The notes below the pieces were generated by a model. The model made no database searches, had not been told where the DNA came from, and saw nothing but the letters and a program-made list of their open reading frames with translations. Below are positions 11,999 through 55,370 of a stretch of 64,000 nt of DNA, piece by piece. The stretch's first letter is position 1; each line of letters opens with the position of its first letter. Source of the stretch: Thermoanaerobaculia bacterium (lineage in GTDB: Bacteria > Acidobacteriota > Thermoanaerobaculia > Gp7-AA8); NCBI GenBank assembly GCA_963715895.1, contig OY970284.1, forward strand, positions 4,771,892 through 4,835,891, written 5' to 3'. A program made the translations under genes and the position numbers.

Positions 11999-12005
11999 GA
12001 AACCG

Positions 12006-35689: not shown

Positions 35690-35730
35690 GTGAAACAATG
35701 GTGTACTCTTTGTAGAAACAAGGAGAAGCC

Positions 35731-36460: not shown

Positions 36461-38839
36461 ATGACCTCCTTCGACCTGATCATCGTCGGTTCCGGGCCGG
36501 CGGGGCTTGCGGCGGCGTCCCACGCGCAGAGCAATGGGCTCTCCTACGCGCTGCTGGAGCGGACCGACCATCTGGCGGACACCATCGACGCCTACCAGGC
36601 CCGCAAGTACGTGATGGCCGAGCCGATGCTGATTCCGGCTCGGGGGGAGGTGCCGTTCCAGGCGGGGTCGCGCGAATCGATCCTGGCGGCGTGGGGTGGG
36701 CACGTCAAAGAGAAGAAGCTCAACGTCCTCTTCAACGCCGAGGTCAAATCCATCAAGAAAGATGCTGGGCGGTTTCAGGTCGCCACCGCGAAGGGCGACA
36801 AGTTCGACGCCGCCAACGTCATCCTCGGCATGGGGACGCAGGGAAATCCGCGCAAACTCGGCGTACCGGGCGAAGACCTTCCCCACGTCCGCTACCGGCT
36901 CGTCGATCCGGCGGAGCATCGCGACCAGGACCTCCTCGTGGTCGGTGCCGGCGACTCCGCGCTCGAAATCGCTATCGCCCTGGCTGCTGAAAACCGCGTC
37001 GGACTGATCGTCCGAGGGACGGAGATCACCCGCGCCAACGACGTCCTGATCAAGGAGGTGCTCAGCCGGCAGGCCACGGGACAGATGACCGTCTACTTCA
37101 GCGCCAGCGTGAAGCAGGTCTATCCCGGCTATGCCGACCTCACCGTGCGCGGTGACGTCACGCGCGTGGCGGCGGAGCTGATCTTCCTCAAGCTCGGGGC
37201 CGACGCGCCGCGCAAATTCTTCGAGTCGATCGGCATCACCTACAGCGGCAGCGGCAAAGACTCGCGTCCCATCCTCAGCCAGGTCCACGAGTCGAGCGTG
37301 CCCGGGCTCTTCCTCATCGGCGCCGCCAGCGGGCGCGATCTCATCAAGCTGGGGATGAATCAGGGCTACGAGGTGGTCGAGCATCTGATGGGACGCGAGG
37401 TCGAGCCGGCCGACGAGGCGGTGCTGAAAGAGCGCCTGCCGTTCTGGGAAGGGACGGTGCGCGAGCGCATCGCCTTCCTGCGCACGCGCGTGCCCCTGCT
37501 GGCCGCGGCGGACGAGCAGCAGCTCCGCGAGACCTTCCTCTCCGCGCGCGTCCGCGAGTATGCGGACGGCGAGATCATCATCCGGCAGAACGACTACACG
37601 AACGACTTCCTCATCATCGCCGCCGGCCGCGTCGAGCTGTGGAAGAAGCCGGAGAAGACAAACACCGAGATCAAGATCGTCGAGCTGACGGCCGGCAACT
37701 TCTTCGGAGAGATGAGCCTCATCTCCGGACGCCGCCGCACCGCCACGGCCCGCGCGGTCGGAGCGACCCGCTTGATCGAGATCCCCCGCAAGGCAATCCT
37801 CAAGCTCCTCGGCGCAGCGCCGAGGGCCAAGGCACTCGTCGATCAGGCCTTCCTGCTGCGCGCCTTCGGCGGCTACCTCTTCCCCGGCATCCCCGAGTCG
37901 CAGCTCGGCGAGCTGGTGGAGCTGGCGGTGGTCAACAGCCTGGCCAAGGATGCGGTGGTCTTCCAGGAGGACACTCCGGCGGATGCCTTCTATCTCATCC
38001 GCAACGGCATGGTGAAGATCTCCAAGAAGTCGGGCGAGAAAGAGGTGGTGCTGTCGTACCTCGTGGCCGGCAACTTCTTCGGCGAGGCGGCCCTTTTCTC
38101 CGACACCGACCGGACGGCCACGGTGACGACGATCTTCCCGTCCGATCTGATCAAGCTCTCCAAGCGCGACTTCAACAACTTCCTGGCCGCCCATCCCGAG
38201 CTGCGCGAGGCGCCGCTGCGCAAGCTCGAGGAGCGCCGCATCGCCTCGCTCATCGCCGACGCCACCCCCGGCTCGGGCAACATCCTCAACGATCTGATCC
38301 GCGAGGAAGTGGTGATGGGGACGCAGACGCTCATCATCGACGAGCACAAATGCATCCGCTGCGGGAACTGCATCGCCGGCTGCGAAGGGGTTCACCGGGA
38401 CGGACAGGCGCGCCTCTCTCTAACCGGGATCAAGTTCTACAACCTGCTGGCGCCGAATTCCTGCTGGCAGTGCGAGAACCCGATGTGCATGCTGGACTGC
38501 CCGCCCGACGCCATCGTGCGCGACCCGCGCGGCGAGGTGTACATCAAGAGCAATTGCATCGGCTGCGGCAACTGCGAGCGCAATTGTCCTTATGGCAACA
38601 TTTTCATGATCCATAAGGAGCCCAAGAAGACGATTTTCTCCTGGGTGGCCTCGCTGTTCGGCAAAGGCCATGAGAACGAGATCGAGCAGACCGTGGCGGT
38701 GAAGTGCGACCTCTGCCGCGAGATCTCCGGCGGGCCGGCGTGCGTGCGGAGTTGTCCAACGGGAGCGGCCATCCGGTTGACGCCGGAGGAGTATCGGTCG
38801 ACGTTGGAGGAGTTGGTGATTACGCGCGGGGAGAGGTAG
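36461..38839 (+). CDS. Multidomain redox protein: FAD/NAD(P)-binding oxidoreductase + 2x cyclic-nucleotide-binding + 4Fe-4S dicluster ferredoxin domains
   Basis: N-terminal dinucleotide-binding GxGxxG (IIVGSGPAGLAAA) and second NAD(P) site (LLVVGAGDSALEIA). Two CAP-family cNMP-binding domains (GEIIIRQND...NFFGEMSLISGRRRTATARA and KDAVVFQED...NFFGEAALFSDTDRTATV). C-terminal Cys clusters (CIRCGNCIAGCEG; CWQCENPMCMLDCPP; CIGCGNCERNCPYG; CDLCRE...CVRSCP). Confidence 0.85.
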   Translation: MTSFDLIIVGSGPAGLAAASHAQSNGLSYALLERTDHLADTIDAYQARKYVMAEPMLIPARGEVPFQAGSRESILAAWGGHVKEKKLNVLFNAEVKSIKKDAGRFQVATAKGDKFDAANVILGMGTQGNPRKLGVPGEDLPHVRYRLVDPAEHRDQDLLVVGAGDSALEIAIALAAENRVGLIVRGTEITRANDVLIKEVLSRQATGQMTVYFSASVKQVYPGYADLTVRGDVTRVAAELIFLKLGADAPRKFFESIGITYSGSGKDSRPILSQVHESSVPGLFLIGAASGRDLIKLGMNQGYEVVEHLMGREVEPADEAVLKERLPFWEGTVRERIAFLRTRVPLLAAADEQQLRETFLSARVREYADGEIIIRQNDYTNDFLIIAAGRVELWKKPEKTNTEIKIVELTAGNFFGEMSLISGRRRTATARAVGATRLIEIPRKAILKLLGAAPRAKALVDQAFLLRAFGGYLFPGIPESQLGELVELAVVNSLAKDAVVFQEDTPADAFYLIRNGMVKISKKSGEKEVVLSYLVAGNFFGEAALFSDTDRTATVTTIFPSDLIKLSKRDFNNFLAAHPELREAPLRKLEERRIASLIADATPGSGNILNDLIREEVVMGTQTLIIDEHKCIRCGNCIAGCEGVHRDGQARLSLTGIKFYNLLAPNSCWQCENPMCMLDCPPDAIVRDPRGEVYIKSNCIGCGNCERNCPYGNIFMIHKEPKKTIFSWVASLFGKGHENEIEQTVAVKCDLCREISGGPACVRSCPTGAAIRLTPEEYRSTLEELVITRGER

Positions 38840-38845
38840 GGATGC

Positions 38846-38943
38846 AATGTTGAATGTTGAATGTTCAATGTTGAATGTTGAATGGACGGGAGACGGTCGC
38901 CTCCATTCAACATTGAACATTCAACATTCAACATTCAACATTC
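38846..38943. repeat. AT-rich heptamer-repeat palindrome (about 33-bp stem)
   Basis: Left arm (GAATGTT)x5-like CAATGTTGAATGTTGAATGTTCAATGTTGAATGTTGAATGG, 16-nt spacer, right arm its reverse complement; in the gap between the multidomain redox gene and the next gene. Confidence 0.75.
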
Positions 38944-38962
38944 GCCTTTCTCAGAGGCGTAC

Positions 38963-39796
38963 ATGCCAATAGCACGAAGCGGCGTCCTCTGGCGCCGGAT
39001 CTTCTTTCTTCTGCTCCTCGCCTTCACCGCGACCTTCATCTGGTACAAGAACCACGAATATCCGCACGGCGGCTCGCGATGGGGGTTGTTTTACGGGATC
39101 GTCGGCTTTTTCCTCTGCTATCTCCTGGCGTTCTTTGGAATCCGCAAGCGCTGGTACCGCTCGACGTTCGGCACCCTCGAACAATGGATGCAATCACACA
39201 TTTACCTCGGCATCCTGGTGCTGGTCATCCTCATTTATCACACGGGCGGACGATTTAACGACAAGATCGCCGTTGCCACGTTGATTCTGGTGGCCATTGT
39301 GGTATCGAGCGGGGTGTTGGGCGCGATTCTCTATGTGACCGTGCCGCGATTGTTAACCGAGGTTGAATCGAACCTGACGGTGGACGAGATATCGGAGCAG
39401 CTCAATCAACTCGCCAAACAGATGGCCCGTATTGCGTCGGGACGGTCGGCGCCATTTCAACGCATTTACAGCCAATTGATCCGCGAAGGCGAGCCGGGAT
39501 GGCTGGCCGGCTGGCGTCTGCTCTTCGCGCGGATGCGACGCGGTCCCGCGCCTATGGCTGGAGAGTGGACCAACCTCCTCAGCCTGGTGCAGAAGGACGA
39601 ACAGGAAGAGCTTCGTCAGCTGCTGGTCGTATCGCGGCAGCGAAAAGAGCTGCTGATCCGACTCATTTACCAGCAGCGCTACAAGAACGTCCTGGAGTTC
39701 TGGCTCTACATTCACATCCCATTCACGATTCTGCTGTTGCTGTTCGCGATCATCCACGTCGTGGCGGTGTTTTACTACGGGAGGGTCGCGTGGTGA
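38963..39796 (+). CDS. Polytopic membrane protein with two H-x13-H helices (putative di-haem b-type cytochrome)
   Basis: ATG at 38963; 5-6 TM helices, two of which carry His pairs spaced 13 residues apart (HIYLGILVLVILIYH; HIPFTILLLLFAIIH), as in bis-haem ferric-reductase/cytochrome-b-type domains. Family not recognised. Confidence 0.5.
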   Translation: MPIARSGVLWRRIFFLLLLAFTATFIWYKNHEYPHGGSRWGLFYGIVGFFLCYLLAFFGIRKRWYRSTFGTLEQWMQSHIYLGILVLVILIYHTGGRFNDKIAVATLILVAIVVSSGVLGAILYVTVPRLLTEVESNLTVDEISEQLNQLAKQMARIASGRSAPFQRIYSQLIREGEPGWLAGWRLLFARMRRGPAPMAGEWTNLLSLVQKDEQEELRQLLVVSRQRKELLIRLIYQQRYKNVLEFWLYIHIPFTILLLLFAIIHVVAVFYYGRVAW

Positions 39797-39928
39797 GGGA
39801 CTCTCTACGATTCCGCCCTCTAAATCCATCCGTTCCATTCCCTCTCGACGGAAGGGCGTGGCAAGAAATTCAACTGCACCGTGAGATTTCTCATACTCTG
39901 ACTGGAATCGTCGGCACCCTGTTACACG

Positions 39929-40112
39929 TCGAGAGCCTTCTCCCCCGCGGTTTTTTGCGGGGGAGAAGGTGCCGACAGGCGGATGAGGGGGCGCTTGGCA
40001 GGATGAGTCGCTATTTCCAGAGGAGTAACAAGGCATGCTGCTCAGCGCCCCCCTCATCCGCCTTCGGCACCTTCTCCCCCCGCAAAAAACCGCGGGGGGA
40101 GAAGGCTCTCGA
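39929..40112. repeat. Large nested inverted repeat (about 66-bp arms, about 50-bp spacer) upstream of the FHA-cytochrome gene
   Basis: Left arm TCGAGAGCCTTCTCCCCCGCGGTTTTTTGCGGGGGAGAAGGTGCCGACAGGCGGATGAGGGGGCGC; right arm its near-perfect reverse complement. Each arm also contains an internal 13-bp-stem hairpin (CCTTCTCCCCCGC ... GCGGGGGAGAAGG). Confidence 0.75.
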
Positions 40113-40199
40113 TGAAAAAGCCTGGGTAGAGGCTCAACAGGACCACGAGAAAGGTAGGGGCCAGCTACACCGGGCCGAACACCCGCGGGTGGCCACCCC

Positions 40200-42431
40200 A
40201 TGAGTTTCGTCATCCAGCGCGCTTCGGGGCGCGGGCTGGCGCTGACGCAGGTGCGGCGCGATCTGCTCCGCATCGGGCGGGGGACGAATGCCGAGCTGCG
40301 CTCGGAGAATCCTGCCGTGGCCCTCGAGCATGCCGTCATCGAAGGCGACGCCAACGGCTTCACCGTCACCGACAAAGGGAGCATCACCGGCACGTACGTC
40401 AATCGCCGGCCGGTGGAGACGGCGCGGCTGGCCAGGGGCGACGTCATCGAGATCGGCGACCTGCGCATCGAGGTACAGGTTCTCGAGCCGGGCAAGCCGC
40501 TCTTCGTCCGCGTCAGCACGACGTCATCCGTGGCGGGGGTATTCGCCGGCGATGACGAGGAGATCGTCCAGGGCGCGGGAGCCCGCGGCGGCGCGGTCAA
40601 GGCGCGGAAGATCGACTACGCCGACGCCTTTCGTCTCAAGCGCGCCTGGCTGACCAAGCTCTCGCTCATCGCCATCCTTCTGATCGTCGCGTTCCTTGTT
40701 GTGGCCGAGGTCACCAAACCGGAGAAACAGAACGCGTTCATGCCGGGAGGGATCTCGTCGGCGCACGCGCGGGCGAAAGATCCCAGAACCGGCGAGTTGA
40801 TCGGCAACAACTGCCGCGCATGTCACAACCCGTGGCGCGGCGTTTCCGACACGAGCTGCACCGAATGTCACGGCAGACTGCCGCATGCGGAGAACCAGAT
40901 CGGCGCTCCGGCATGCGCCGACTGCCACTCCGAGCATCGCGGCTTCGCCAAACTGGCCGCGGCCGCGGACGCCACCTGCATCTCCTGCCACGGCGACATC
41001 GCCGCTCATGTCAAGGATCCGGCCGCCCTGGCGACGAAACCGAAAGAGATCCTCCACATCCTCTCCTTCGGCGGCCAACATCCCGACTTCACGCCGCGGA
41101 GCGATCCCGACACCCTTCTCTTCAACCACGCCCTCCACCTCAAGGCGGGTGGCGTGTTCAACGGAGAAGGACGCCGCGAAGAACTTCAGTGCACGCAATG
41201 CCACAAGCTCGTCGAGACGAAGGGGAAAGTCGATCCCGCTCCGATCAGCTTCAAGAGCCACTGCCAGCGCTGCCACAAACTGACGTTCGATCCGCGCTTC
41301 CCTAACGTCGAAGTGCCGCATGGAGGCGATCCCGCCGACGTCTACGGCTTCGTCCTGGCCACCTACGCCGGCAACCGCGACATCATCGGCAAGAGTCCGG
41401 AAGAGGTCCGGCGCATTCTGACGCTGCGGCCGCCGTCGACTCCCGACCAGGGAGCGGTGCTCAACGCCGAGCAGGTCGTCAAGGTCAAATGCAGCAAGTG
41501 CCACATCCTCCAGCGCTCCGGCACCCGTCTGGCCGCGAAGACGCCCGAGATCCCGGCGCGCTGGTTCCTGAAGGCGAAATTCACGCACACGCCGCACCGC
41601 ACCCTTTCGTGCGAGTCGTGTCACGAAAATGTCCGTCAGAGCACCAATACGTCAGACGTGCTGATGCCTGTGCGCAAAGATTGCACCGGATGCCACGGCG
41701 GGCAGTCGGCCAAAACATCCAGTAGCTGCGCGACCTGTCATGAGTATCATGAGCATTCGAAGGTCTTGTTGACGAAATTGGGGGCTTCCTCCGGGAAAGG
41801 AACGCCTCTTGCCCCGAAGGAACATGGAGGCGGATCCCGGATGATCGAGACGGTTCTTCTGTGGGCCATCGTCCTGTTACTGCTGGTGGTGCTCGTGCCG
41901 GCAGGGTTGGCGCTGGTCCAGCGTATCCGGGCCGGCGAGCTCGATCGCGCCGCGGGCGTGCGCGCCGCGGCCGCGCAGCAGGCGCCGACAGCGAAGATTC
42001 CGCCGCTGCAGGGTTCCGAGACGCCGTCGGCTCCGCCGCCCGCCGCGCCGGCGAAGGCGCCGGACATCACGAAGATGGCTCCCGTCCCCACCGCCCCGGC
42101 GGAAGGATCGACGGTGATGGTGCAGTGGTATGGCCTCCTGCAGTGCACCGGCGGCGCGCTGGAAGGACAGCGCTTCGTCATCGAAGAAGGCGGCCTCTAC
42201 ATCGGCCGCGATCCGGCCATGTCGCAGGTGGCCATCTCGGACAAACGCATCTCCAAACGGCACGTGCGGATCATTCCGCGTGATGGTAAGGTAATGGCCA
42301 TCGATCAGAACTCGACGAACGGTACGTTCCTCGGCAAGGCCGGCGGCGAGCGGATCACCGAGGTACAGCTCAAACGGGGAGACGTTCTCGTCCTGGCCGA
42401 CAACGCGGCCACGTTTGTGTACCAGATATAG
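40200..42431 (+). CDS. FHA - TM - decahaem c-type cytochrome - TM - FHA protein
   Basis: 743 aa. N-terminal FHA (LLRIGRGTNAELRS...GSITGTYVN...GDVIEIGDLRI), TM1 (LSLIAILLIVAFLVVAEV), ten CxxCH motifs (CRACH, CTECH, CADCH, CISCH, CTQCH, CQRCH, CSKCH, CESCH, CTGCH, CATCH), TM2 (VLLWAIVLLLLVVLVPAGLALV), Pro/Ala linker, C-terminal FHA (LYIGRDPAMSQVAISDKRISKRHVRI...STNGTFL...GDVLVLAD). Confidence 0.85.
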   Translation: MSFVIQRASGRGLALTQVRRDLLRIGRGTNAELRSENPAVALEHAVIEGDANGFTVTDKGSITGTYVNRRPVETARLARGDVIEIGDLRIEVQVLEPGKPLFVRVSTTSSVAGVFAGDDEEIVQGAGARGGAVKARKIDYADAFRLKRAWLTKLSLIAILLIVAFLVVAEVTKPEKQNAFMPGGISSAHARAKDPRTGELIGNNCRACHNPWRGVSDTSCTECHGRLPHAENQIGAPACADCHSEHRGFAKLAAAADATCISCHGDIAAHVKDPAALATKPKEILHILSFGGQHPDFTPRSDPDTLLFNHALHLKAGGVFNGEGRREELQCTQCHKLVETKGKVDPAPISFKSHCQRCHKLTFDPRFPNVEVPHGGDPADVYGFVLATYAGNRDIIGKSPEEVRRILTLRPPSTPDQGAVLNAEQVVKVKCSKCHILQRSGTRLAAKTPEIPARWFLKAKFTHTPHRTLSCESCHENVRQSTNTSDVLMPVRKDCTGCHGGQSAKTSSSCATCHEYHEHSKVLLTKLGASSGKGTPLAPKEHGGGSRMIETVLLWAIVLLLLVVLVPAGLALVQRIRAGELDRAAGVRAAAAQQAPTAKIPPLQGSETPSAPPPAAPAKAPDITKMAPVPTAPAEGSTVMVQWYGLLQCTGGALEGQRFVIEEGGLYIGRDPAMSQVAISDKRISKRHVRIIPRDGKVMAIDQNSTNGTFLGKAGGERITEVQLKRGDVLVLADNAATFVYQI

Positions 42432-42454
42432 CGAAGGGTGGAGGGAGACCGCGG

Positions 42455-44278
42455 ATGCGCTCCGGTGTCACGTCGATCCTCATGATTCTCGTCGCCACGG
42501 CCTGCCTGGCGCAGGGCCGCACGATCGGACGGCGCGACAGGGCGTTGGCGACCACTCCCGATCCCCCTTCGTGCGCCATCCCTCTGAACGCGGCCCTTCC
42601 CGACGTCTGCACCGACGGCGCGATCGGCCTCGGGACGCCGGAGCCATTCAGCGCCATTTCGAAAGCCGAGGCGATTGAGATCGTCAAGGCGGCGGCGACG
42701 GCGCTTGCCGGCGACACCGCCACCATCGCCATCGTCGACCGTACCGGCCGTCCGGTGGCGTTGTTCCGGCAAGCCAACGCCAACCCTGCCAACGATGACG
42801 TCGCCCTCGGCGTGGCCCGCACCGCCGCCTTCTTCAGCAACAGCCAGGCGCCGCTTTCCTCGCGCACGGTGCGCACCATTTCTCAAGTGCACTTCCCACC
42901 AGGCGTGGTCAACACGCCGGTCGGCGCTCTGTACGGGATCGAACAGTCGAACCGCGGATGCGATGTAAACGTGCTGTGGAACACGAATCAGTGCGTTCCG
43001 CGAGCGAAGTCGATCGGACAGTTCGCCGCCTTCACCGGCGCGCCGAAGCCCTGCCCGATCACTGATCGCTCCGGCTGCGGCCCCGGTCTCATCACCGGGA
43101 AAATCCTGCCGGACGATGCGCCGTATCCGCAGGAAGTCGATACCCGTCCCGTCAACGCCGGCGGCATCCCGCTCTACCGCGTTCTCGACACCAGTGCCGT
43201 CAAGCAGGGGATCGCCCGCACCGGAAAGCTGCTCGGCGCGATCGGCGTCACCGGCATCCCCGGCGATCCACAGCTCGCCGAATTCGCCGCCGTTACCGGC
43301 GCCTTTGGTCCGCTCAACGCCGGCGTGGCGCCGATCATCCCGCTGCCGAACTATCCGCTGCCGCAGCCGCAGAACGTCTTCATCGACGGAATCCGCCTGC
43401 CGTTCATCGGGCCGGATCAACAGCTGAAGTTCAATGCAGACGGACTGCCGATCGGTCTCCAGCAACTGCCCGGCACCTCGCCAGGTTCAGCCGCGGGATT
43501 TACCGCGGGCACCTTCGTCTACGGACCCTTTAACGGCGGCTGCCCGCCGAACGGCTATCTCGTCGGTCCCAACGCCAGCGTGCTGCCGGGCGGGCTGACG
43601 GCATCGGCGGTCGACGCCATCGTGCAGCGCGCCGTCGCGGCGGCCAGGCGCACCCGCGCTCAGGTGCGCCTCCCACTCAACAGCTACACCCGCATGATCA
43701 TCTCCGTAGCCGACACCGACGGAACGATCCTGGCGCACTACCGGATGCCCGACTCCCTCTTCGACGCCGTCGACGTCGTCCTGGCGAAAGCGCGCAACGT
43801 CGCCTACGTCAACGGCAGCGATCCGAACGTCCGCAACGATCTTCCCGGCATTCCCGCCGGCTATTGGGTAACCGGGCGCACGATCGGTTTCGGTGCGCAG
43901 CCGCTCTATCCGCCGGGCATCGATTCGCAGGCATTCGATGTCGGTCCCGGGCCGTGGTACTCCACTCTCTTTCTGCCAAACATCGCCAAGCCGTGCAGCC
44001 AGGGATCGCAGGCGCCGAACGCCAACCAGAACGGCGTCACATTCTTCGGCGGATCCACGCCGCTCGTCGACAACGGCAAACTCGTCGGTGGTCTCGGCGT
44101 CAGCGGCGACGGTATCGAGCAGGACGACTATGTCACCTACCTCGGCGCGGGCCCTCTCCTTCCGCCGACCGACAAATGGGCCGATCAGCTCAATGTCAAC
44201 GGCGCCCGTCTGCCGATGTTCAAGTTCCCCCGGAGCCCCGAAGGAGTCACGGAGTGCGGGGGGAAGCCGTGTTCGTAG
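42455..44278 (+). CDS. Secreted tandem GlcG/HbpS-like (DUF336) haem-binding protein
   Basis: Signal peptide; two DUF336-like modules (SKAEAIEIVKAAATALAGDTATIAIVDRTGRPVALFRQ... and SAVDAIVQRAVAAARRTRAQ...MIISVADTDGTILAHY...GGSTPLVDNGKLVGGLGVSGDGIEQDD). Confidence 0.7.
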   Translation: MRSGVTSILMILVATACLAQGRTIGRRDRALATTPDPPSCAIPLNAALPDVCTDGAIGLGTPEPFSAISKAEAIEIVKAAATALAGDTATIAIVDRTGRPVALFRQANANPANDDVALGVARTAAFFSNSQAPLSSRTVRTISQVHFPPGVVNTPVGALYGIEQSNRGCDVNVLWNTNQCVPRAKSIGQFAAFTGAPKPCPITDRSGCGPGLITGKILPDDAPYPQEVDTRPVNAGGIPLYRVLDTSAVKQGIARTGKLLGAIGVTGIPGDPQLAEFAAVTGAFGPLNAGVAPIIPLPNYPLPQPQNVFIDGIRLPFIGPDQQLKFNADGLPIGLQQLPGTSPGSAAGFTAGTFVYGPFNGGCPPNGYLVGPNASVLPGGLTASAVDAIVQRAVAAARRTRAQVRLPLNSYTRMIISVADTDGTILAHYRMPDSLFDAVDVVLAKARNVAYVNGSDPNVRNDLPGIPAGYWVTGRTIGFGAQPLYPPGIDSQAFDVGPGPWYSTLFLPNIAKPCSQGSQAPNANQNGVTFFGGSTPLVDNGKLVGGLGVSGDGIEQDDYVTYLGAGPLLPPTDKWADQLNVNGARLPMFKFPRSPEGVTECGGKPCS

Positions 44279-44290
44279 GGCGTAACGCAA

Positions 44291-44466
44291 CGCTACGTAG
44301 GTCGGACTCACGTAGGTCGGACTCACGTAGGTCGGACTCACGTAGGTCGGACTCTCTAGTCCGACCGGCGCTTGGGAGATCGGTAATTGATAACCCGCCT
44401 GTAGTTCAGAGCCGCGCAAGAACCGGTCGGACTAGAGAGTCCGACCTACGTGAGTCCGACCTACGT
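44291..44466. repeat. Composite tandem + inverted repeat element (MITE-like)
   Basis: Four tandem copies of ACGTAGGTCGGACTC (44295-44354), palindrome GGTCGGACTCTCTAGTCCGACC, about 57-bp spacer, second palindrome GGTCGGACTAGAGAGTCCGACC and two inverted copies GAGTCCGACCTACGT ending at the OMP start codon. Confidence 0.75.
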
Positions 44467-46454
44467 TTGGCTTCGCTCGTCTTTCTCATCCTCCTGTTCG
44501 CAACCTCGGCATTCGCGCAACCCGCAACCGCGCCCATCACCATCAACGACGACCAGCCCGTTTACGCCGAGGGTGTGCCGTTCCTGCTCACGGGAACATC
44601 GCTGCCCGGCGCTATCGTCACCATCGCCATCGAGAAATCGGGCAACGGCCAGACCACAGCCGATGCTTCGGGATATTGGACATTGATCTGGACACCGCCG
44701 GTAAAAACCGGCACGTGGACCATCACCGCCAGCTCGGGGGGCGTGACGGCGACGCAGCTTCTGCGCGTACAGATTCAGGGCAACGTACAGCGGCAGCCGA
44801 TCGTCGAGCCGGTCGTGCGCTACGGGACGCCGGAGATTCCGCATCCCGAGGCGTATCAGGAGATGACGGATCGGTGGCGCATCACGCCGCCGCCGTACGA
44901 GCTGACCGAGAAATCGAAAGGCCGCCCCATCGGCGACAAAGGCGCCTCGATCGATCCGTACAACCAGAACCTGATCAAAGGCGACCTGCCGATCTTCGGG
45001 AAGGACTGGTTCCTCGACTTCACCGGCATCAGCGACACCCTCGCCGAGTCGCGCACGCTGCCGACGCCGTCGGGCGTCAGCGCCGTCAAGCCGACCTCGA
45101 TCACCGTCTTCGGCAAAGACAACCAGAACCTCTTCAACGAGAACCTGATCGCCTCCTTCGACCTCTTCCAGGGCGACACCGCCTTCAAGCCCATCACGCA
45201 GCGCTTCAAGATCACGCTGATCGAAAACATCAACTACGTACACCTGCGCGAGAACGCTCTCGTCAAGCCTGACGTCCGCCGCGGAACGTCGCGCACCGAT
45301 GGGTATCTCTCGCTGCAGGAGATCTTCTACGAGCGAAAGATCCGCGATGTCTCGCCGAACTACGACTTCATGTCATTCCGCGTCGGATCGCAGCCCTTCA
45401 ACAGCGACTTCCGCGGGTTCATCTTCAACGACACGAACCTTGGCGCCCGCCTTTTCGGCAACTTCGCGTCCAATCGCTATCAATACAACGTCGCCGTGTT
45501 CGACCGGCTGGAAAAAGACACCAACTCCGGCCTCAACACAATGGAGCTCCGCGATCAGCAGGTCGGCATCGCCAATATCTACCTGCAGGACTTCCTCGTC
45601 CGCGGCTACACCCAGGAGTTCAGCGTCCACTATCTACGCGACGGCGCCACCTTTCACTACGACCGCAACGGCATCCTGGTGCGCCCTGCGCCGGTTGGGG
45701 TCTTCACGCCGCACGAGATCCGCGCCACGTACATCGGCGAGGCGGGCCTGGGACACATCGGCCGCTTCAACGTCGACCACGCCATCTACTACGTCTTCGG
45801 CACCGACGAGTTGAATCCGATCGCCGGCCCCGATCCGAATCTAAAGAACGGGAACGCCGTGAAGATCGGAGCCGGCAGCGCGGCCCTCGAGGTCTCCTAC
45901 GACCACGATTGGTATCGGCCGCGGCTGGCCCTTTTCTACGCCTCGGGCGACCGCAATCCGCGCGACCGCAACGCCCGCGGCTTCGACTCCATCTTCGACA
46001 GTCCTAATTTCGCCGGCGGCGGTTTCTCTTCTTCAACCGCCTCGGCATCCGCCTTCCGACGACCGGCGTCGCGCTCGTCGAGCGCGGCTCGCTCCTGACC
46101 AGCCTGCGCAGCTCGAAGGATGAAGGGCAGCCGAACTACGTCAATCCCGGCGTGCAGATCGCCAGCACGGGAATCGATGTCAACGTCACGCCGCGGCTGA
46201 CGGCAATCTTCACCGGCAACTACATCCGCTTCGACGCCGTCGAGTCGGTCGAGGCCATCCTCTTCCAGGGCAACATCCACAAGACGCTCGGCACCGATCT
46301 CTCCGCCGGCCTTCGCTACCGGCCGCTCCTCAACCAGAACATCGTCATCGTCGGCGGCACCGCCGTCCTCCTCCCCGGCCGAGGATTCAAAGACATCTAT
46401 GAAAAAGACCGGCCGCTCTACCACGTCTTCACGAACGTAATCCTGACCTTCTGA
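44467..46454 (+). pseudogene. Outer-membrane beta-barrel (porin-like) protein, interrupted by a -1 frameshift at about 46021-46025
   Basis: TTG start; signal peptide (ASLVFLILLFATSAFAQP); alternating-hydrophobic beta-strand composition; C-terminus ...HVFTNVILTF ends in Phe (OMP sorting signature). The reading frame switches at GGCGGCGGTTTCTC (3-T run): frame 1 ends at 46098, frame 0 continues as FLFFNRLGIRLP... to 46454. This may be a sequencing error rather than a true pseudogene. Confidence 0.6.
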
Positions 46455-49400
46455 TGAAACGGATAACGATCGCTCTCGCCGCAGTGCTCATCGTCACGCT
46501 GGCCGTGATCAGAATCCGCGCGCAGACATCCCCCGACCTCCCGCCGCTGATGCGCCAGACACAGGCCGAGGCCGATGCGAAGAGTGCCGGATGCCTCTCG
46601 TGTCATAACGGGATCGAACCGATGCACGCCTCGGCGGCGGTGAAGCTGGCCTGCACCGACTGCCACGGCGGCGACGGTTCGGCGCGGACGAAAGAGGCCG
46701 CGCATGTCAAGCCGCTCCATCCCGAGATCTGGAAGACCTCGGCCAATCCGCAGCGCAGCTACACCGCCCTTCTGAAAGAGACGCCGGAGTTCGTGAAGTT
46801 CGTCAATCCAGGCGACCTTCGCGTCTCGCAGGAGACCTGCGGCGGCTGCCATCAGCGCCAGGTCAACGCTGTACCGCGCAGCACCATGACGACGTCCGCC
46901 GTCTTCTGGGCCGCCGTCAGCTACGCCAACGGTCTCGTCAGCCGCAAGCAGGGACTCCTCGGCGAGAGCTACAACCGCGCCGGCAACGCCACGTCCATCA
47001 AACCGGCAACGCCGCCGACACCCGATCAGATCGCCAAAGGCGCGCTGCCGATCCTCGTCCCACTGCCGCGCTGGGAGGTCTTTCAGCCGGCCGAGTACTT
47101 CCGCGCTTTCGAGCGAGGCGGCATCTCGGGAAGCAGCTCCTTCCCGGATATCGGCAATCCCAGCCCCGAGGGGGAAGCGGGTAAGCCTGACATCCGCCTC
47201 GGCAACCGCGGACGCGGTACCGGCCTGCGCATCTCGCCCGCGCTCATCAATCTCAACAAGACGCGGCTCAACGATCCCCATCTCTCGTTCCTCGGCACGA
47301 ACGATCATCCAGGCGACTACCGCTCCTCCGGATGCACGGGATGCCACGTCGTCTACGCCAACGATCGCGATCCATTGCATTCCTCTAGCTACGCTCAGTA
47401 CGGCAACACCGGCCTCTCCATCACCGGCGACAAATCGATCCCGAAGAATGAGCAGGGACACCCGCTACGCCACCAGTTCACGCGCGCCGTACCAACGAGC
47501 CAGTGCATGACGTGTCACATGCATCAGCCGAACTCCTTCGTGAACACGTATCTCGGCTACACGATGTGGGACTACGAGTCAGACGCCGAGCTGCTCTGGC
47601 CGAAGAAACAGAAGTATCCGACCGAGGCCGAGAAGCGCGCCTCGCTCGACGCAAATCCAGAAGGCGCTGCGCCGAGGGGATTGTGGAGCGATGAGAAGTT
47701 CCTCGAAAACGTCTCCGGCCTCAATTCGCAGGCGAAGAACACCCAGTTCGCCGACTACCACGGGCACGGCTGGAACTTCATGGCCGTCTACAAACGCGAC
47801 CACAAAGGCAACCTGCTCGACGCCGACGGCAGAATCGTTTCGTTCGATGATCCCGCCAAGTTCAGCAAAGCCGTTCATCTGCAGGACATCCACCTCGAGA
47901 AAGGGATGCACTGCGCCGACTGCCACTTCTCGCAGGACGAGCACGGCAACGGCCAGATCTACGCCGAGTACGGCAACAACATCGAGATCGAATGCCAGGA
48001 CTGCCACGGCAACGTCGACGCCTACACCAACCTGCGCACCTCCGGCCCCGCCGCGCCGCCGGGAGGGACCGATCTTCGGCTCGGAACCACACCGTTCGGT
48101 CAACGCCGCTTCATCTGGGTCAACGGCAGGCTGTATCAGAGGTCGATGCTGAACCCCGGCATGCAGTGGGAAGTCATCCAGGTCAAAGACAGCATCACGC
48201 CCGGTAACGCGCATTACAACGAGCGCTCCGCGTATGCGAAGACGATCCAGCGCGACGGTACGACCTGGGGAACGTCATCCAGCGCGAATTTCGCCCACGC
48301 CGACGCCAGGATGACTTGCTATGCGTGCCACACCTCGTGGATGACCTCATGCTCCGGCTGCCATCTGCCGCAGGAGCAGAACGCCAAGACCGAGGTCCAT
48401 CACTACGAGGGGGGCGAGACGAGAAACTACGCCTCGTACAACCCCCAGGTCATCCGCACCGACGTCTTCATGCTTGGTGTCAACGGCACCACCAAAGGGC
48501 ATCGCCTAGCGCCCGTTCGGTCATCGTCCGCGCTCGTGATCAGCTCGACGAACGCATTGCGCGACCGCATCTACATCCAGCAGCCACCCATCTCCTCGCC
48601 CGGATATTCGAGCCAGGCCTTCAACGCCCACGTCCCGCACACCGTCCGCACCCGCGAAACGCAGGGGTGCGGAAGCTGCCACATCACCAAAGAGAACGAC
48701 AACAACGCCTGGCTCGCCCAGCTCCTGCTGCAAGGAACCAACTTCGTCAACTTCGTCGGCCGCTACGCCTACGTCGCGGAAGGAAAGGGCGGGTTCGAGG
48801 GCGTCTGCGTAACCGAGTGGGACGAGCCGCAGGCGGTCATCGGATCGTCGCTGCACAAGATCGTCTATCCCGACTACTACGCGAAGCACCAGGCCAACAA
48901 GCTGGAGCTGCAGACCGCGCACGAACATCACGGCGACTCGCGCTCACTGCAGATGCGCGGTGAGTTCATCTACAGCGCGAACGGCGAGGAAGGCTTCAGC
49001 GTCTACGACATCGCCAACATCGACAACAAAGACTTCTCCGAGCGCATCGTCTCCCAGCCGGTCTCCCCGCTAGGCCAGCGTACCTTCGTGAAGACGAAGT
49101 TCGCCTCGGCCGTGGCGCTGCCGACGACGATGCCGGTGGCCCCCACGCGCCAGACGCAGTTCATCAAGGAAAACGAAGAGCAGACGATTCACCCGCTGTA
49201 CAAATACGTCTACGTCGCCGACCGCGAAGAGGGGCTGATCCTCATCGACGTGACGACGCTGTCAGACGCCAATCCGTCGAACAACTTCCTCACGCGCGCC
49301 GTGACCTTCAATCCCGGCGGCGCGCTCAACGGTGCCCGATCGATCTACGTCGCCGGACGCTGGGTCTTCATCGGCGCAGCGGGTGGCTTGGTCATCGTCG

Positions 49401-50065
49401 ACGTCGACAAACCGCTCGAGCCGAGGATTGTCGCCACGATTCCTGAATTGAAGGATGCCACCGGCATCGGCGTGCAGTTCCGCTATGCCTTTGTCACCAC
49501 GCCGGAAGGATTGGCCAGCGTCGACATCACCGACCCGTCGCATCCGCGCGTGGCCGCGCGCCTGGCCGTTCCCGACGCCAGAAGCGTCTATGTCGCTCGC
49601 ACCTACGCCTACATCGGCGGAGGCGCCCGCGGGATGGTCATCGTCGACGTCGAGCACCCGGAGAAGCCGGCAATCCTCCCGTGGAGCGACGAGCTCCCGC
49701 ATGACGCCAACGACGTGAAAGTGGCCTCGACCAACGCATCGACCTTCGCGTACGTCGCCGACGGCAAGTACGGTCTCAAGGTCTACCAGTTCCTCTCCCC
49801 CGAATGGACGCCCGGATACGCCGGCTTCAGCCCGCGTCCCGAACCGCGCCTCGTCGCCACCCGCCGCACGCACGGCCCGGCGCTGGCGGTCTCGAAGGGC
49901 CTCGACCGCGACCGCGCCGTCGACGAAGGCGGCAATCAGGTTTCGATCTTCAACCGCATCGGCGCGCGCCCGATGACGCTCCCCGAGATGCAGCGGCTCT
50001 ACCTCCGCGACGGATCGCTCTACACCGTCAGCGAGACGCCGACTACGAAGCCGGTCACGAGGTGA
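46454..50065 (+). CDS. Secreted multihaem (about 10 CxxCH) c-type cytochrome fused to C-terminal LVIVD-repeat beta-propeller
   Basis: ATG overlaps OMP stop (ATGA); signal peptide. CxxCH motifs: CLSCH, CTDCH, CGGCH, CTGCH, CMTCH, CADCH, CQDCH, CYACH, CSGCH, CGSCH. C-terminal about 350 aa contain LVIVD-type repeats (LILIDVT, LVIVDVD, MVIVDVE, YAYIGGG). Confidence 0.85.
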   Translation: MKRITIALAAVLIVTLAVIRIRAQTSPDLPPLMRQTQAEADAKSAGCLSCHNGIEPMHASAAVKLACTDCHGGDGSARTKEAAHVKPLHPEIWKTSANPQRSYTALLKETPEFVKFVNPGDLRVSQETCGGCHQRQVNAVPRSTMTTSAVFWAAVSYANGLVSRKQGLLGESYNRAGNATSIKPATPPTPDQIAKGALPILVPLPRWEVFQPAEYFRAFERGGISGSSSFPDIGNPSPEGEAGKPDIRLGNRGRGTGLRISPALINLNKTRLNDPHLSFLGTNDHPGDYRSSGCTGCHVVYANDRDPLHSSSYAQYGNTGLSITGDKSIPKNEQGHPLRHQFTRAVPTSQCMTCHMHQPNSFVNTYLGYTMWDYESDAELLWPKKQKYPTEAEKRASLDANPEGAAPRGLWSDEKFLENVSGLNSQAKNTQFADYHGHGWNFMAVYKRDHKGNLLDADGRIVSFDDPAKFSKAVHLQDIHLEKGMHCADCHFSQDEHGNGQIYAEYGNNIEIECQDCHGNVDAYTNLRTSGPAAPPGGTDLRLGTTPFGQRRFIWVNGRLYQRSMLNPGMQWEVIQVKDSITPGNAHYNERSAYAKTIQRDGTTWGTSSSANFAHADARMTCYACHTSWMTSCSGCHLPQEQNAKTEVHHYEGGETRNYASYNPQVIRTDVFMLGVNGTTKGHRLAPVRSSSALVISSTNALRDRIYIQQPPISSPGYSSQAFNAHVPHTVRTRETQGCGSCHITKENDNNAWLAQLLLQGTNFVNFVGRYAYVAEGKGGFEGVCVTEWDEPQAVIGSSLHKIVYPDYYAKHQANKLELQTAHEHHGDSRSLQMRGEFIYSANGEEGFSVYDIANIDNKDFSERIVSQPVSPLGQRTFVKTKFASAVALPTTMPVAPTRQTQFIKENEEQTIHPLYKYVYVADREEGLILIDVTTLSDANPSNNFLTRAVTFNPGGALNGARSIYVAGRWVFIGAAGGLVIVDVDKPLEPRIVATIPELKDATGIGVQFRYAFVTTPEGLASVDITDPSHPRVAARLAVPDARSVYVARTYAYIGGGARGMVIVDVEHPEKPAILPWSDELPHDANDVKVASTNASTFAYVADGKYGLKVYQFLSPEWTPGYAGFSPRPEPRLVATRRTHGPALAVSKGLDRDRAVDEGGNQVSIFNRIGARPMTLPEMQRLYLRDGSLYTVSETPTTKPVTR

Positions 50066-51420
50066 TGACGATGAAGCGAATGAAACGAATGATGATTCTC
50101 TTCGTGCTGATGACCGCGGCCGCTGCGATCGCGCAGCAACCGAGCAACCCGGCAACCCAGCAACCTCAAACCCCAGCCCCGATGCAACCACCGTCTGTTC
50201 CCAACCACTACGACGGCGTCGCCTCCTGCGCCAACTCCGGCTGCCACGGCTCGACCCAGCCGCTCAACGCCGCGCACGTCCTGCAGAACGAGTACTACAC
50301 GTGGCTGAGCAAAGATCGCCACGCGCAGGCCTACAACGTCCTCTTCAGCGACCGCTCGGCGCGCGTCGCGCGCAACATGCGCCTCAAAGGAAAGGCTTAT
50401 CAGGAGACCGTCTGCCTCGATTGTCACACTACGAACGTCCCCGCGCGCCTGGTCTCCGGCAAAATGGACGTCGAAGACGGCGTCCAGTGCGAAGCCTGCC
50501 ATGGCCCCGCCAGCGGCTGGCGCGCCGAGCACACGCAGGCCGGCTGGACGCACGAGCAGTCGGTGGCGCGCGGGATGACCGACCTCCGAAACCTCCCCGT
50601 CCGTGCCTCGGGCTGCCTCTCCTGTCACCTCGGCAACGACAAGAAGGAAGTCGATCACGAGCTGATCGCCTCCGGCCATCCCATCCTCGCCTTCGAGCTC
50701 GACAACTACACCGAGACGATGCCGCCCCACTGGCGCCGAGACAAAGACGCCGTGGCCGCCGACACCCACGGCGCGCGTGCCTTCGCCGTCGGCCAGGCCG
50801 CCGCATTCAGCCAATCGCTCGACAATCTGGCCCGCCACGCCCGCGGCGATAAGTGGCCGGAGTTCTCCGACATGAGCTGCATCAACTGCCACCATTCGCT
50901 CGAGGGCAGCGGATGGCGTCAGGAGCGCGGCTGGCCCGGCCGGGCCGGCCTCCCTGCGTGGAGCCCGCAGCATTGGGCCGTCCTCCGTCTCCTGGTCGGG
51001 CGCGCCAATCCTTCCGCACGCGCGACGCTCGACAACGCCGTGGAGATCCTCGCCGTACGCGTCTCACGGATGAACGACTCCAACGGCGTTCTGCAGGCAG
51101 CCAACGAAGCCCGCCGCACCATCGACAGCGTCACGCCGCAGATCGCCGCCCTGAGCTGGCGCGATGACGATGTCCGCTCCATGATGCGCACTATCGCCGG
51201 CGACACCGACTTCCTCCTCAATTCCGACGTCCACTCCGCCGAGCAGACCGCGCTGGCGCTGCAGAGCCTTGCCTCCGCCCTCACCCGAAGCAACCCGCGC
51301 CTGCTCAAGAGCCCGATGACCGAAGCGATCGATGCTCTCTTCGAAGAGGTCAAGAGCCGCGAACGCTACGAACCGTCACGATTCGTGCAGAAGCTGGCGG
51401 CGGTGCGGGCGGCGTTGTAG
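50065..51420 (+). CDS. Secreted pentahaem c-type cytochrome (4x CxxCH + 1x CX4CH)
   Basis: ATG overlapping upstream stop (TGATGA); signal peptide (MKRMMILFVLMTAAAAIAQQ); haem motifs CANSGCH (CX4CH), CLDCH, CEACH, CLSCH, CINCH. Confidence 0.8.
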   Translation: MTMKRMKRMMILFVLMTAAAAIAQQPSNPATQQPQTPAPMQPPSVPNHYDGVASCANSGCHGSTQPLNAAHVLQNEYYTWLSKDRHAQAYNVLFSDRSARVARNMRLKGKAYQETVCLDCHTTNVPARLVSGKMDVEDGVQCEACHGPASGWRAEHTQAGWTHEQSVARGMTDLRNLPVRASGCLSCHLGNDKKEVDHELIASGHPILAFELDNYTETMPPHWRRDKDAVAADTHGARAFAVGQAAAFSQSLDNLARHARGDKWPEFSDMSCINCHHSLEGSGWRQERGWPGRAGLPAWSPQHWAVLRLLVGRANPSARATLDNAVEILAVRVSRMNDSNGVLQAANEARRTIDSVTPQIAALSWRDDDVRSMMRTIAGDTDFLLNSDVHSAEQTALALQSLASALTRSNPRLLKSPMTEAIDALFEEVKSRERYEPSRFVQKLAAVRAAL

Positions 51421-55301: not shown

Positions 55302-55321
55302 CCGCGGTGGTTTACTAAGCC

Positions 55322-55357: not shown

Positions 55358-55370
55358 GAAGGAGGTACAC

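Follow-up and report, generated by a model that had tools for sequence, protein, structure and literature searches.

We analysed a 64-kb window of the genome of a Thermoanaerobaculia bacterium (positions 4,771,892 to 4,835,891 of contig OY970284.1, assembly GCA_963715895.1) and found in it a conserved cluster of seven genes for flavin, iron-sulfur (FeS) and multihaem proteins, which may together form a redox system of the cell envelope. All coordinates below are positions in this window, and the genes were labelled A, B and C1 to C5 in the 5' to 3' order. They occupied positions 36461-51420, all on the plus strand, and the G+C content at third codon positions (GC3) was of the coding type along the whole gene run (36.4-51.4 kb). 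The A gene (36461-38839) encoded a flavo-FeS protein of 792 aa with Pyr_redox, two cNMP_binding and Fer4 domains, and the B gene (38963-39796, its start taken from alignment) a membrane protein of 277 aa. C1 (40200-42431) encoded a 743-aa protein with ten CXXCH motifs, two FHA domains and two transmembrane (TM) segments, and C2 (42455-44278) a secreted protein of 607 aa with two HbpS/GlcG-like (DUF336) domains. C3 (44467-46454) corresponded to an outer-membrane protein, 662 aa long when its reading frame was repaired. The last two genes were C4 (46454-50065), for a 1203-aa protein with ten CXXCH motifs and LVIVD repeats, and C5 (50065-51420), for a 451-aa secreted pentahaem cytochrome of the Cytochrome_C554 family. 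The haem total of C1, C4 and C5 was thus 25 (10/10/5).

The original prediction for this DNA had described C1 to C5 as a five-gene co-directional operon. The common direction was correct, but the extent was not, since synteny placed seven genes in the conserved unit. The cyclic nucleoside monophosphate (cNMP)-binding flavo-FeS protein and the di-haem-b membrane protein that had been noted upstream were indeed present there and were conserved with the rest of the cluster. The gene overlaps of one base proposed at 46454 and 50065 were exact in the sequence. Namely, in the TGATG at 46452-46456 the C3 stop codon TGA (46452-46454) and the C4 start codon ATG shared one A, and in the TGATG at 50063-50067 the same was true of the C4 stop codon TGA (50063-50065) and the C5 ATG. 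The descriptions of four proteins also agreed with our results: a membrane decahaem cytochrome (C1, with ten CXXCH motifs and two hydrophobic segments, to which we added the two FHA domains), a secreted tandem GlcG/HbpS protein (C2, with two PF03928 stretches and a signal peptide), a cytochrome of about ten haems fused to an LVIVD propeller (C4, with ten CXXCH motifs, an LVIVD match and a confidently modelled propeller) and a five-haem cytochrome (C5, with four CXXCH motifs and one CX4CH motif, CANSGCH). None of the seven proteins had an equivalog in NCBIfam or an informative name in the sources examined, and a consensus scan for promoters and terminators gave sites no more frequently than in shuffled sequences.

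Relatives of the cluster were collected by a scan for two invariant C4 peptides, CHMHQPN and GHGWNFM, in one genome per GTDB species, which gave at least 595 confirmed loci. The comparisons of neighbourhoods described below used the best 80 of these at least 595 loci, from about ten phyla. The related loci were labelled L001, L002 and so on.

Cytoplasmic protein A and membrane protein B

Protein A matched the Pfam families Pyr_redox_3 (128 bits), Pyr_redox_2, cNMP_binding (138 bits in two stretches), Fer4_7 and other 4Fe-4S dicluster families. Among the NCBIfam models, it matched YpdA (139 bits) and HydN (67 bits), each under its cut-off. The C-terminus of A aligned with the four-cluster ferredoxin HydN across 150 residues and contained four clusters of cysteines. 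The protein had no signal peptide and carried a GxGxxG Rossmann motif at residue 9. Because its first 330 residues did not contain a single cysteine, A was not a disulfide reductase; we take it to resemble the ferredoxin-NADP reductases (FNR) of the thioredoxin reductase (TrxR) type, and YpdA. Both cNMP domains had an intact phosphate-binding cassette (FGE...RTA). In most loci the A gene lay beside B and C1, with protein identities of 31-94%, and Parahaliea had an A protein of the same architecture, in which an FAD/NAD(P)H domain was combined with two cNMP domains and a ferredoxin domain.

The start of B was placed by alignment at 38963 (MPIARSG). The start of the open reading frame (ORF) at 38882 was wrong, and the part upstream of 38963 was a translated hairpin repeat. 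Five hydrophobic segments could be recognised in B by eye, four of which were resolved by a hydropathy scan, and a basic loop of about 100 aa separated the fourth and fifth segments. The third and the last helix each contained a histidine pair of the form H-x13-H (SHIYLGILVLVILIYH and IHIPFTILLLLFAIIH), and these four histidines were invariant in 17 sequences from all phyla sampled. All five members compared with Ni_hydr_CYTB (PF01292) matched it weakly, with 10-24 bits against a cut-off of 30.1 (E-values 3e-5 to 0.5), and single members had weak matches to DUF4405 and to Ferric_reduct (PF01794, E 0.22). These three families belong to one clan of di-haem cytochromes b. The positive-inside rule would put one histidine pair near each face of the membrane, and two stacked b haems are classically placed in this way. 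Thus, B was a putative di-haem b carrier of electrons across the membrane. The original prediction had suggested that the upstream genes could supply quinol oxidation. This was not supported, and the input would rather be cytoplasmic NAD(P)H, with electrons passing through FeS clusters and b haems.

Membrane cytochrome C1, protein C2 and phospho-threonine signalling

The order of elements in C1 was a divergent FHA domain, a TM segment (154-172), a decahaem region, a second TM segment (552-570), a Pro/Ala linker and a canonical FHA domain. The ten CXXCH motifs lay at residues 205-510, with about 32 aa per haem. The FHA family (PF00498) matched with 93.4 bits in two stretches, the Cytochrome_C7 and Cytochrom_c3_2 families of Pfam were matched as well, and the MtrC/MtrF domain family (PF22113) remained below its threshold (27.5 against 30). 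Since the FHA domains lay outside the TM segments that bracketed the haem motifs, the topology of C1 would be FHA inside, decahaem in the periplasm and FHA inside again. The C-terminal FHA domain retained the phosphothreonine-binding residues GR, SKRH and NG. The N-terminal one kept GR but had ALEH and TG at the other positions, and was hence divergent.

The FHA-cytochrome-FHA architecture was found in 508 homologues, all from Thermoanaerobaculia or Acidobacteriota metagenomes, and ten CXXCH motifs were present in 55 of the 57 complete homologues. An N-terminal FHA-like domain also occurred in the C1 proteins of Nitrospira, Bdellovibrionota and Methylobacter loci, and Pfam detected no FHA domain in C1 of Parahaliea. 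The second TM segment and the canonical C-terminal FHA domain were limited to a subclade of Thermoanaerobaculia. In Parahaliea maris (L055, 14934-17068), the C5 gene was followed by genes for a PP2C phosphatase and for a protein with two FHA domains, and such a pair lay 3' of C5 in Gammaproteobacteria and Bacteroidota, in at least 14 loci besides L055. There, the phospho-threonine module was retained in the form of separate genes. At least 15 loci had PP2C genes, at least 26 encoded separate FHA proteins and at least 11 encoded Ser/Thr kinases. Because these genes recurred across the loci, the association with phospho-threonine signalling was a property of the system and not of this genome. 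The regulation would be more elaborate than had been proposed for the upstream genes, with intact cNMP cassettes in A and with FHA domains accompanied by PP2C and Ser/Thr kinase genes nearby.

A possible regulator was a protein with DUF4388/PatA_N and FHA domains (28419-29645, plus strand; assigned by Pfam). On the contigs of C1 relatives with 52-77% identity, the cluster was often preceded by such a gene and twice by a Ser/Thr kinase gene; in L001, L002 and L004 the DUF4388-FHA gene stood directly 5' of A. Here it was about 7 kb away, and the genes for a tetratricopeptide repeat protein, an unknown ORF, purH and a DUF5694 protein lay between it and A. The displacement therefore suggested a local rearrangement or insertion.

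Protein C2 was assigned from its sequence profile to the HbpS-like/GlcG family (PF03928, 83.7 bits in two stretches against a gathering score of 25). Its matches in the PDB were GlcG/EfgA and the C-terminal domain of PduO. Signal peptides were found on C2, C3, C4 and C5, and C2 lacked a haem c motif. The gene was located between C1 and C3 in most loci, with protein identities of 24-86%.

These features would also be consistent with a sensor, in which the haems of C1 together with C2 report the redox state of the envelope, and the FHA, kinase and phosphatase proteins together with A convert it into a cytoplasmic signal, much as HbpS acts for SenS/SenR in Streptomyces. The FHA domains fused to C1, the recurrence of PP2C, kinase and FHA genes beside the cluster, the membership of C2 in the HbpS-like family and the two cNMP domains of A all fit such a function. 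On the other hand, the C-terminal FHA fusion was specific to one lineage, no output domain of a transcription factor was conserved in the cluster, and a sensor would hardly need as many as 25 haems and four FeS clusters, together with a flavin, a dedicated outer-membrane barrel and a protein of 1200 aa that is more than 50% conserved. We therefore considered a mainly sensory role very improbable.

Outer-membrane protein C3 and cytochromes C4 and C5

In the repaired frame, the signal peptide of C3 (MASLVFLILLFATSAFA|QP) was followed by an N-terminal Ig-like sandwich, and a barrel of about 18 strands led to the C-terminus ...VILTF. It contained neither cysteines nor a haem motif. Fold comparison placed the modelled barrel nearest to AlgE/OprD. 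The relatives of C3 were intact proteins of 641-669 aa that belonged to no Pfam family, and no match to MtrB_PioB was present among the Pfam domains precomputed for the homologues listed. Thus, by its predicted fold, C3 was an outer-membrane barrel of the AlgE/OprD-like and not the MtrB-like kind. The barrel predicted earlier at 44467-46454 was therefore upheld as an outer-membrane protein, whereas its description as a single intact ORF was not, since the sequence lay in two frames separated by a deletion of 1 nt. The signal peptides of the cytochromes, a second point that had been put forward for re-examination, were present as well.

The C4 protein consisted of a Sec signal, a decahaem domain of about 740 aa, in which each haem took up about 74 aa, and an LVIVD beta-propeller. 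The LVIVD family (PF08309) matched C4 with 72 bits and was matched by 22 of 22 homologues, and ten CXXCH motifs were kept in 73 of 75 homologues. In an AlphaFold2 model built from 42 sequences, the propeller was confident, and the cytochrome half had a predicted local distance difference test score (pLDDT) below 50. The propeller model resembled propellers of 7-8 blades, and Foldseek returned generic propellers alone. The cytochrome half was on average even more conserved than the propeller (mean column identity 0.62 vs 0.56). The signal peptide was of the signal peptidase I type, ended in IRA|Q and had no lipobox, and the same was true of most homologues. A surface location of C4 was therefore not indicated.

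Neither sequence nor profile searches gave a significant relative of C4 in the PDB. The best profile match was a haem-pair motif of 50 residues similar to NrfA/TvNiR (E 0.15). When 22 homologues were scanned against Pfam (E up to 1), the matches were to generic c3, c7 and c554 families alone, apart from the LVIVD repeats and from weak matches of 12 of the 22 to the MtrC/MtrF domain family (PF22113), which was absent from C4 of the window. C4 was the best-conserved protein of the cluster. Its identity across phyla was 52-56% over the full length, that is, at least 52% over 1200 residues, and clustering of a library at 50% identity reduced the full-length family to about 15 representatives, none of them below about 41% identity. 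Because of this extreme conservation, C4 was likely the catalytic or substrate-contacting end of the system.

The C5 protein was assigned by profile comparison to the true relatives of cytochrome c554. PF13435 matched it with 44 bits against 20.8, and its family profile matched cytochrome c554 (1BVB) with an E-value of 1.8e-9, compared to 0.04 for cytochrome c552 (5ZE8). It was not an equivalog of the Nitrosomonas c554 (25.8 bits, with 400 required). The similarity to c554 concerned the N-terminal part, and the C-terminal part of about 200 aa was helical. The pattern of four CXXCH motifs and one CX4CH motif was retained in 47 of 50 homologues.

Distribution and conservation of the cluster

The contigs of the C1 relatives with 52-77% identity all had the same gene order A, B, C1, C2, C3, C4, C5, with A of 791-792 aa, B of 274-277 aa and C4 of about 1200 aa. 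A tblastn search with the seven proteins of the window recovered the whole block in nearly every sufficiently long locus among the 80. In some loci A or C5 had moved to the other side of the block, and in some A, B or C5 was undetected. The gene order recurred in about 60 independent loci of many phyla, which was far above chance. In an all-against-all clustering of the neighbouring ORFs, PP2C was the one family outside the core set that was widely shared.

Among the sources of the best 80 loci were Thermoanaerobaculia, Vicinamibacteria, Ca. Sulfotelmatobacter, Nitrospira, Ca. Binatia, Myxococcota/Polyangiaceae, Bdellovibrionota, Bacteroidota and Alpha-, Beta- and Gammaproteobacteria, including Halieaceae and Steroidobacteraceae. 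Two aerobic isolates, Parahaliea maris HSLHS9 and Fontimonas sp. SYSU GA230001, were among the hosts, as were metagenome-assembled genomes (MAGs) of Methylobacter, Halioglobus, Haliea, Steroidobacter, Arenimonas, Nevskia and Rhodoferax. Because it was carried by such hosts as Nitrospira, Methylobacter, Halieaceae, Steroidobacteraceae, Bdellovibrionota and Bacteroidota, the cluster was not a signature of metal-respiring anaerobes.

Across phyla, identity to the proteins of the window decreased from C4 (given above) to C3 (32-51%), A (31-42%), C5 (29-35%), B (25-35%), C2 (24-33%) and C1 (23-29%). The counts of haem motifs were essentially invariant, with ten in C1, ten in C4 and four plus one in C5. 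Two Bacteroidota loci (L036 and L042) had the order C3-C4-C5-A-B-C1. In these loci the A match covered about 47% of the query, and C5 was shorter, with three haem motifs.

Comparison with known redox systems

The closest published counterpart was ptdABCDEFG, which has been described from bioinformatic and transcriptomic data by Elbon et al. in Alpha- and Gammaproteobacteria and Nitrospirales (bioRxiv 10.1101/2023.11.21.568154). It comprises a pentahaem cytochrome, a porin, an FAD/NAD(P) oxidoreductase, a tetrahaem cytochrome, a cNMP/4Fe-4S protein, a ferric-reductase-like membrane protein and a decahaem cytochrome (bioRxiv 10.1101/2023.11.21.568154). We compared it with our cluster by its published description. 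PtdC (FAD/NAD(P)) and PtdE (cNMP, 4Fe-4S) together corresponded to A, the ferric-reductase-like PtdF to B and the periplasmic decahaem PtdG to C1, and a porin and a pentahaem cytochrome were common to both. Hence all six component types co-occurred in our cluster, the first two fused in A. However, the ptd description contained no LVIVD decahaem protein (C4) and no HbpS-like protein (C2), its flavoprotein and cNMP/FeS protein were separate genes, and FHA domains were not mentioned. It also had an additional tetrahaem cytochrome, PtdD, whereas the cluster of the window had no tetrahaem gene. The ptd pentahaem was said to be c552-like (5ZE8), whereas C5 matched c554 much better by profile. The short A match of L036 and L042 may represent an arrangement closer to the split PtdC/PtdE.

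Another counterpart was the NHC trio of Ferrigenium straubiae, in which an anchored multihaem cytochrome with a cytosolic FHA domain was similar to C1, an unannotated 5-TM protein to B and a cytosolic [4Fe-4S] protein to A (bioRxiv 10.64898/2026.01.22.701106). Fusions of FHA domains to multihaem cytochromes had not been reported before, according to that preprint (bioRxiv 10.64898/2026.01.22.701106). Unlike C1, its cytochrome had nine haems and one TM helix, and the trio lay beside nirK without C2-C5 genes. Its authors proposed a link from Fe(II) oxidases to quinone, whereas here the invariant histidines of B suggested b haems.

The pairing of A with B was reminiscent of NarGHI and FdnGHI, where electrons cross the membrane through a four-cluster ferredoxin subunit docked on a di-haem b membrane subunit, and of the Tmc and Hmc complexes of Desulfovibrio, where no free quinone takes part in the link between periplasmic multihaem cytochromes and a cytoplasmic FeS protein. 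In contrast to these systems, our cluster had no molybdopterin subunit, its ferredoxin module shared one polypeptide with an NAD(P)H flavoprotein and cNMP domains, and B had weak similarity to Ni_hydr_CYTB. In NOX (NADPH oxidase), FRE and MsrQ systems, cytoplasmic NAD(P)H and a flavin feed two stacked b haems and electrons leave the cell; the haems are held by two pairs of histidines on two helices, with a spacing of 13 residues. This was similar to what we propose for A and B. The differences were that A and B were separate polypeptides, that an FeS chain was interposed and that the acceptor would be a multihaem network and not O2 or Fe(III).

The opposite direction of flow would also be conceivable, as in NarGHI or Tmc/Hmc. 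In such an inward oxidative system, C4 and C5 would oxidise a periplasmic or imported reductant, for example a reduced nitrogen, sulfur or metal species, and electrons would pass through C1 and B to A, where they would support an energy-conserving redox loop or the reduction of a cytoplasmic acceptor. C5 was a relative of cytochrome c554, and c554 takes electrons from hydroxylamine oxidoreductase. The A C-terminus and B also resembled NarH/NarI and FdnH/FdnI, pairs that carry electrons inward. Moreover, related modules lay beside nirK in Ferrigenium (bioRxiv 10.64898/2026.01.22.701106) and were co-transcribed with nod in Alphaproteobacteria of oxygen-deficient zones (bioRxiv 10.1101/2023.11.21.568154), and Nitrospira and Methylobacter were among the hosts of our cluster. 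Nevertheless, the reduction of NAD(P)+ against the membrane potential would need a donor of very low potential, clustering of the neighbours gave no nitrogen- or sulfur-oxide gene conserved beside the cluster, and C4 had no significant similarity to HAO, NrfA or OTR (best E 0.15). Thus, we regarded this alternative as distinctly improbable.

The resemblance to MtrCAB and to the porin-cytochrome (Pcc) conduits was at the level of gene content. In both, the gene for an outer-membrane barrel adjoined genes for periplasmic and large multihaem cytochromes, so that a path across the envelope would exist in principle. The original prediction had invoked the logic of such conduits while stating that the components did not look like Mtr or Pcc orthologues. 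The joint conservation of barrel and multihaem cytochromes agreed with that logic, but membership in the Mtr system was not supported by family matches, nor membership in the Pcc system by the types of components. C5 had 24.4 bits to the DmsE family (TIGR03508), with a cut-off of 192, and C1 and C4 did not match it. The C3 barrel had about 18 strands, compared to the 26 strands of MtrB in 6R2Q. There was no surface lipoprotein decahaem of the MtrC/OmcA type, and the input would not be quinol oxidation of the CymA/ImcH type. The Pcc system OmaB-OmbB-OmcB differs in combining an octahaem cytochrome, a porin-like protein and a dodecahaem lipoprotein, whereas here the haem numbers were 10/10/5 and no lipobox was present. 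The best NCBIfam match of C4 was ExtM (NF040943) of the Geobacter ExtHIJKL-MNOPQS proteins, among which a porin-like protein is thought to act with periplasmic cytochromes and which are connected with selenite and tellurite reduction. However, this match reached 78.9 bits against a cut-off of 800, with about 50 residues well aligned, and our cluster had no rhodanese-like ExtH.

A trans-envelope conduit would require that C5 or C1 insert into C3 and hand electrons to a surface-exposed C4, which would reduce or oxidise insoluble Fe or Mn oxides, humics or electrodes. The adjacency and translational coupling of the barrel and multihaem cytochrome genes would fit this arrangement, as would the LVIVD repeats, which were typical of cell-surface proteins according to the paper on the Tenderiales uet cluster. 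Weak MtrC/MtrF domain matches in C1 and in 12 of the 22 C4 homologues, the lipobox that a few C4 homologues may carry and the metal reducers reported among Thermoanaerobaculia in the literature point in the same direction. Against it stood the AlgE/OprD-like barrel without MtrB_PioB matches in the precomputed domains of its listed homologues, the plain Sec signal of C4 in the window and most homologues, the failure to join the DmsE/MtrA family (24 bits against 192) and the many obligate aerobes and a nitrite oxidiser among the hosts. In addition, the 52-56% identity of C4 was unlike the fast-evolving outer-surface cytochromes of Geobacter (PMC12977616). We therefore judged the conduit unlikely, and the cluster was probably not dedicated to metal respiration.

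Four other published clusters turned out to be different. The Acidobacteriota cluster of Flieder et al. consisted of a multihaem cytochrome, an NHL-repeat protein, a cytochrome, a PPIase and barrels, and the descriptions of EET1-4 from peatland Terriglobales and Bryobacterales mentioned neither a propeller nor FHA domains. The LVIVD protein of the Tenderiales uet cluster was separate and haem-free, and the NHL propellers of Desulfovibrio ferrophilus (DFE_0448-0465) were separate proteins. Taken together, these comparisons indicated that our cluster was not a member of the Mtr, Pcc or Ext systems and was distantly ptd-like. It was a variant, spread much more widely, of a class that has come to notice recently and that combines an NAD(P)H flavo-FeS protein, a cytochrome b and multihaem cytochromes.

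Proposed mechanism

The reading that we prefer, to which we give an even chance of being correct, is a quinone-independent redox system of the envelope with features of NOX and Nar, which would carry electrons from NAD(P)H to periplasmic multihaem cytochromes and would be gated by cNMP and phospho-threonine. In this model, NAD(P)H would be oxidised in the cytoplasm at the FNR/TrxR-like FAD domain of A, which has no redox cysteines, and electrons would then run along its HydN-type chain of four [4Fe-4S] clusters. The FeS chain would dock on B, whose two b haems would take the electrons across the inner membrane and bypass the quinone pool. On the periplasmic side they would be received by C1, acting as a membrane-anchored decahaem wire, and passed to the soluble pentahaem C5 and to the decahaem-propeller protein C4 as the catalytic or substrate end. 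The C3 channel would more likely pass a small substrate, product or shuttle than sheathe a cytochrome, and C2 may be an accessory protein for cofactor binding or sensing. The system would be gated by cNMP binding to A, and also by phospho-threonine signals received at the FHA domains of C1.

We favoured the outward flow because of the strong reducing power of NAD(P)H and because the membrane potential would assist the outward movement of electrons. Several points weighed against this model. Flavoproteins of the FNR type are reversible, and modules of the NarI type carry electrons inward. The matches of B to cytochrome b families were all below the curated thresholds, and the cNMP domains of A could be purely structural. 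It is conservation that makes a catalytic role of C4 likely, and no haem with open coordination or catalytic character was identifiable in C4, whose cytochrome half was modelled with a pLDDT below 50. A possible lipobox was present in C4 of a few lineages (L021 and L030, a Binatia and a Nitrospira locus). As for the window itself, C3 was frameshifted, and three very stable hairpins inside the operon might break its co-transcription.

Frameshift and hairpins in the local copy

Frame 1 of C3 ran from a TTG at 44467 to a stop codon at 46098, and the conserved C-terminal 140 residues were in frame 0. Alignment of the DNA to 12 related loci indicated that one base was absent between 46028 and 46029 (GGTTTCTC-TTCTTC). 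The missing base fell within the invariant motif FAGGGFSFFNRLGI and was present in all 12 aligned relatives, and joining the two frames at ...NFAGGGFS|FFNRLGI... restored this motif.

All three hairpins lay in spacers of the cluster. In the A/B hairpin (38840-38946), an (AATGTTG)n array preceded its reverse complement, (CATTCAA)n, and Tandem Repeats Finder (TRF) placed its two arrays at 38845-38884 and 38904-38943. The predicted RNA fold had an energy of -60.2 kcal/mol (z = -10.3). The B/C1 spacer, 400 nt long, contained a near-perfect palindrome of 180 nt (39931-40110; -153.5 kcal/mol, z = -16.4). This spacer was absent in more distant relatives, and B and C1 overlapped in L002, L004 and L005. 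The palindrome was not a repeated mobile element, as no second copy was found in the window or the loci. The C2/C3 hairpin (44295-44466; -121 kcal/mol, z = -12.1) comprised four copies of ACGTAGGTCGGACTC followed by two copies of the reverse complement, as detected by TRF. Its main stem in the RNA fold lay at 44325-44466, and the hairpin ended one base before the start codon of C3.

Thus, the local cluster might be decaying, with C3 as a pseudogene and a copy that does not function whatever the family does elsewhere. The position of the deletion in an invariant motif and the giant hairpins in the A/B, B/C1 and C2/C3 spacers would fit this explanation. So would the fact that the other genes checked in the window looked intact, which gave no sign of a generally error-prone assembly. 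On the other hand, the other six genes of the cluster were all intact with full sets of haem motifs, and L001, a relative with intact genes, likewise had hairpins in its B/C1 spacer. Since the fragment of C3 downstream of the lesion kept a coding-type GC3 (0.87) and perfect conservation, the lesion was either very recent or an error of the assembly. It may be that C3 was a fresh pseudogene and that the system was defective in this genome, and we treated decay of the local copy as a real possibility, although rather an unlikely one.

Other repeats and neighbouring genes

The (AATGTTG)n hairpin recurred in L001 at a different place, namely the B/C1 spacer (L001 9598-10000). Hairpins of inverted tandem repeats were also located at 35626-35691, 11852-12004 and 25125-25198 of the window. 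At all these sites, those in the cluster included, the units of 7, 8 or 15 nt differed between sites, and the stems were near-perfect over 45-80 bp. It seems that Thermoanaerobaculia have a family of such hairpin-forming elements at dispersed places.

Just 3' of purH, positions 34401-34626 contained 10.7 tandem copies of the 21-mer CCAGAGGCAGTTAACAGCCTT, with 94% matches. An imperfect tandem repeat of 21/42 nt (ACGTCAGGCTCCTGAACCTGA...) at 57342-57431 overlapped the predicted start of an M50-peptidase-like gene (57416) and a minus-strand ORF (57178-57558). An octamer family (CAGCAACC / GCAACCCA / GGTTGCTG) formed short tandem arrays between genes at 11852-12004, 22286-22316 and 25125-25198, and was also found inside C5 (50134-50165), where it encoded a Gln/Pro-rich linker after the signal peptide.

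On the 3' side of the cluster, positions 53775-56291 encoded a DHOR (PF06537) di-haem oxidoreductase/peroxidase followed by a TonB_C protein, and this pair was not conserved beside the cluster in relatives. Further downstream (58184-61984) was the gene for a signalling protein of 1266 aa with the domains PAS/GAF-GGDEF-EAL.

Implications

This gene set was among the most conserved and most widely spread multihaem gene sets that we saw, with at least 595 species genomes, and its hosts spanned aerobes, nitrite oxidisers, methanotroph MAGs and predators. None of the four largest envelope parts belonged to a named family. Clusters of porins and multihaem cytochromes are routinely taken as markers of metal respiration in metagenomes, and the present one shows how misleading this can be. 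Since two of the hosts, Parahaliea maris HSLHS9 and Fontimonas sp. SYSU GA230001, are in culture, its function can be tested directly.

A more specific version of the outward model is tentative and, in our view, rather doubtful. It would be a horizontally spread, quinone-free exporter of NAD(P)H electrons into a network of 25 haems that ends in C4 and is switched by cNMP and phospho-threonine. If this were true, the system could be a missing enzyme that supplies bacterial reductant or superoxide outside the cell, or it could reduce metals for assimilation or transform nitrogen oxides. The input module suggests a bacterial counterpart of transmembrane electron export of the NADPH-oxidase type, coupled to signalling through cNMP and through FHA, PP2C and kinase proteins.

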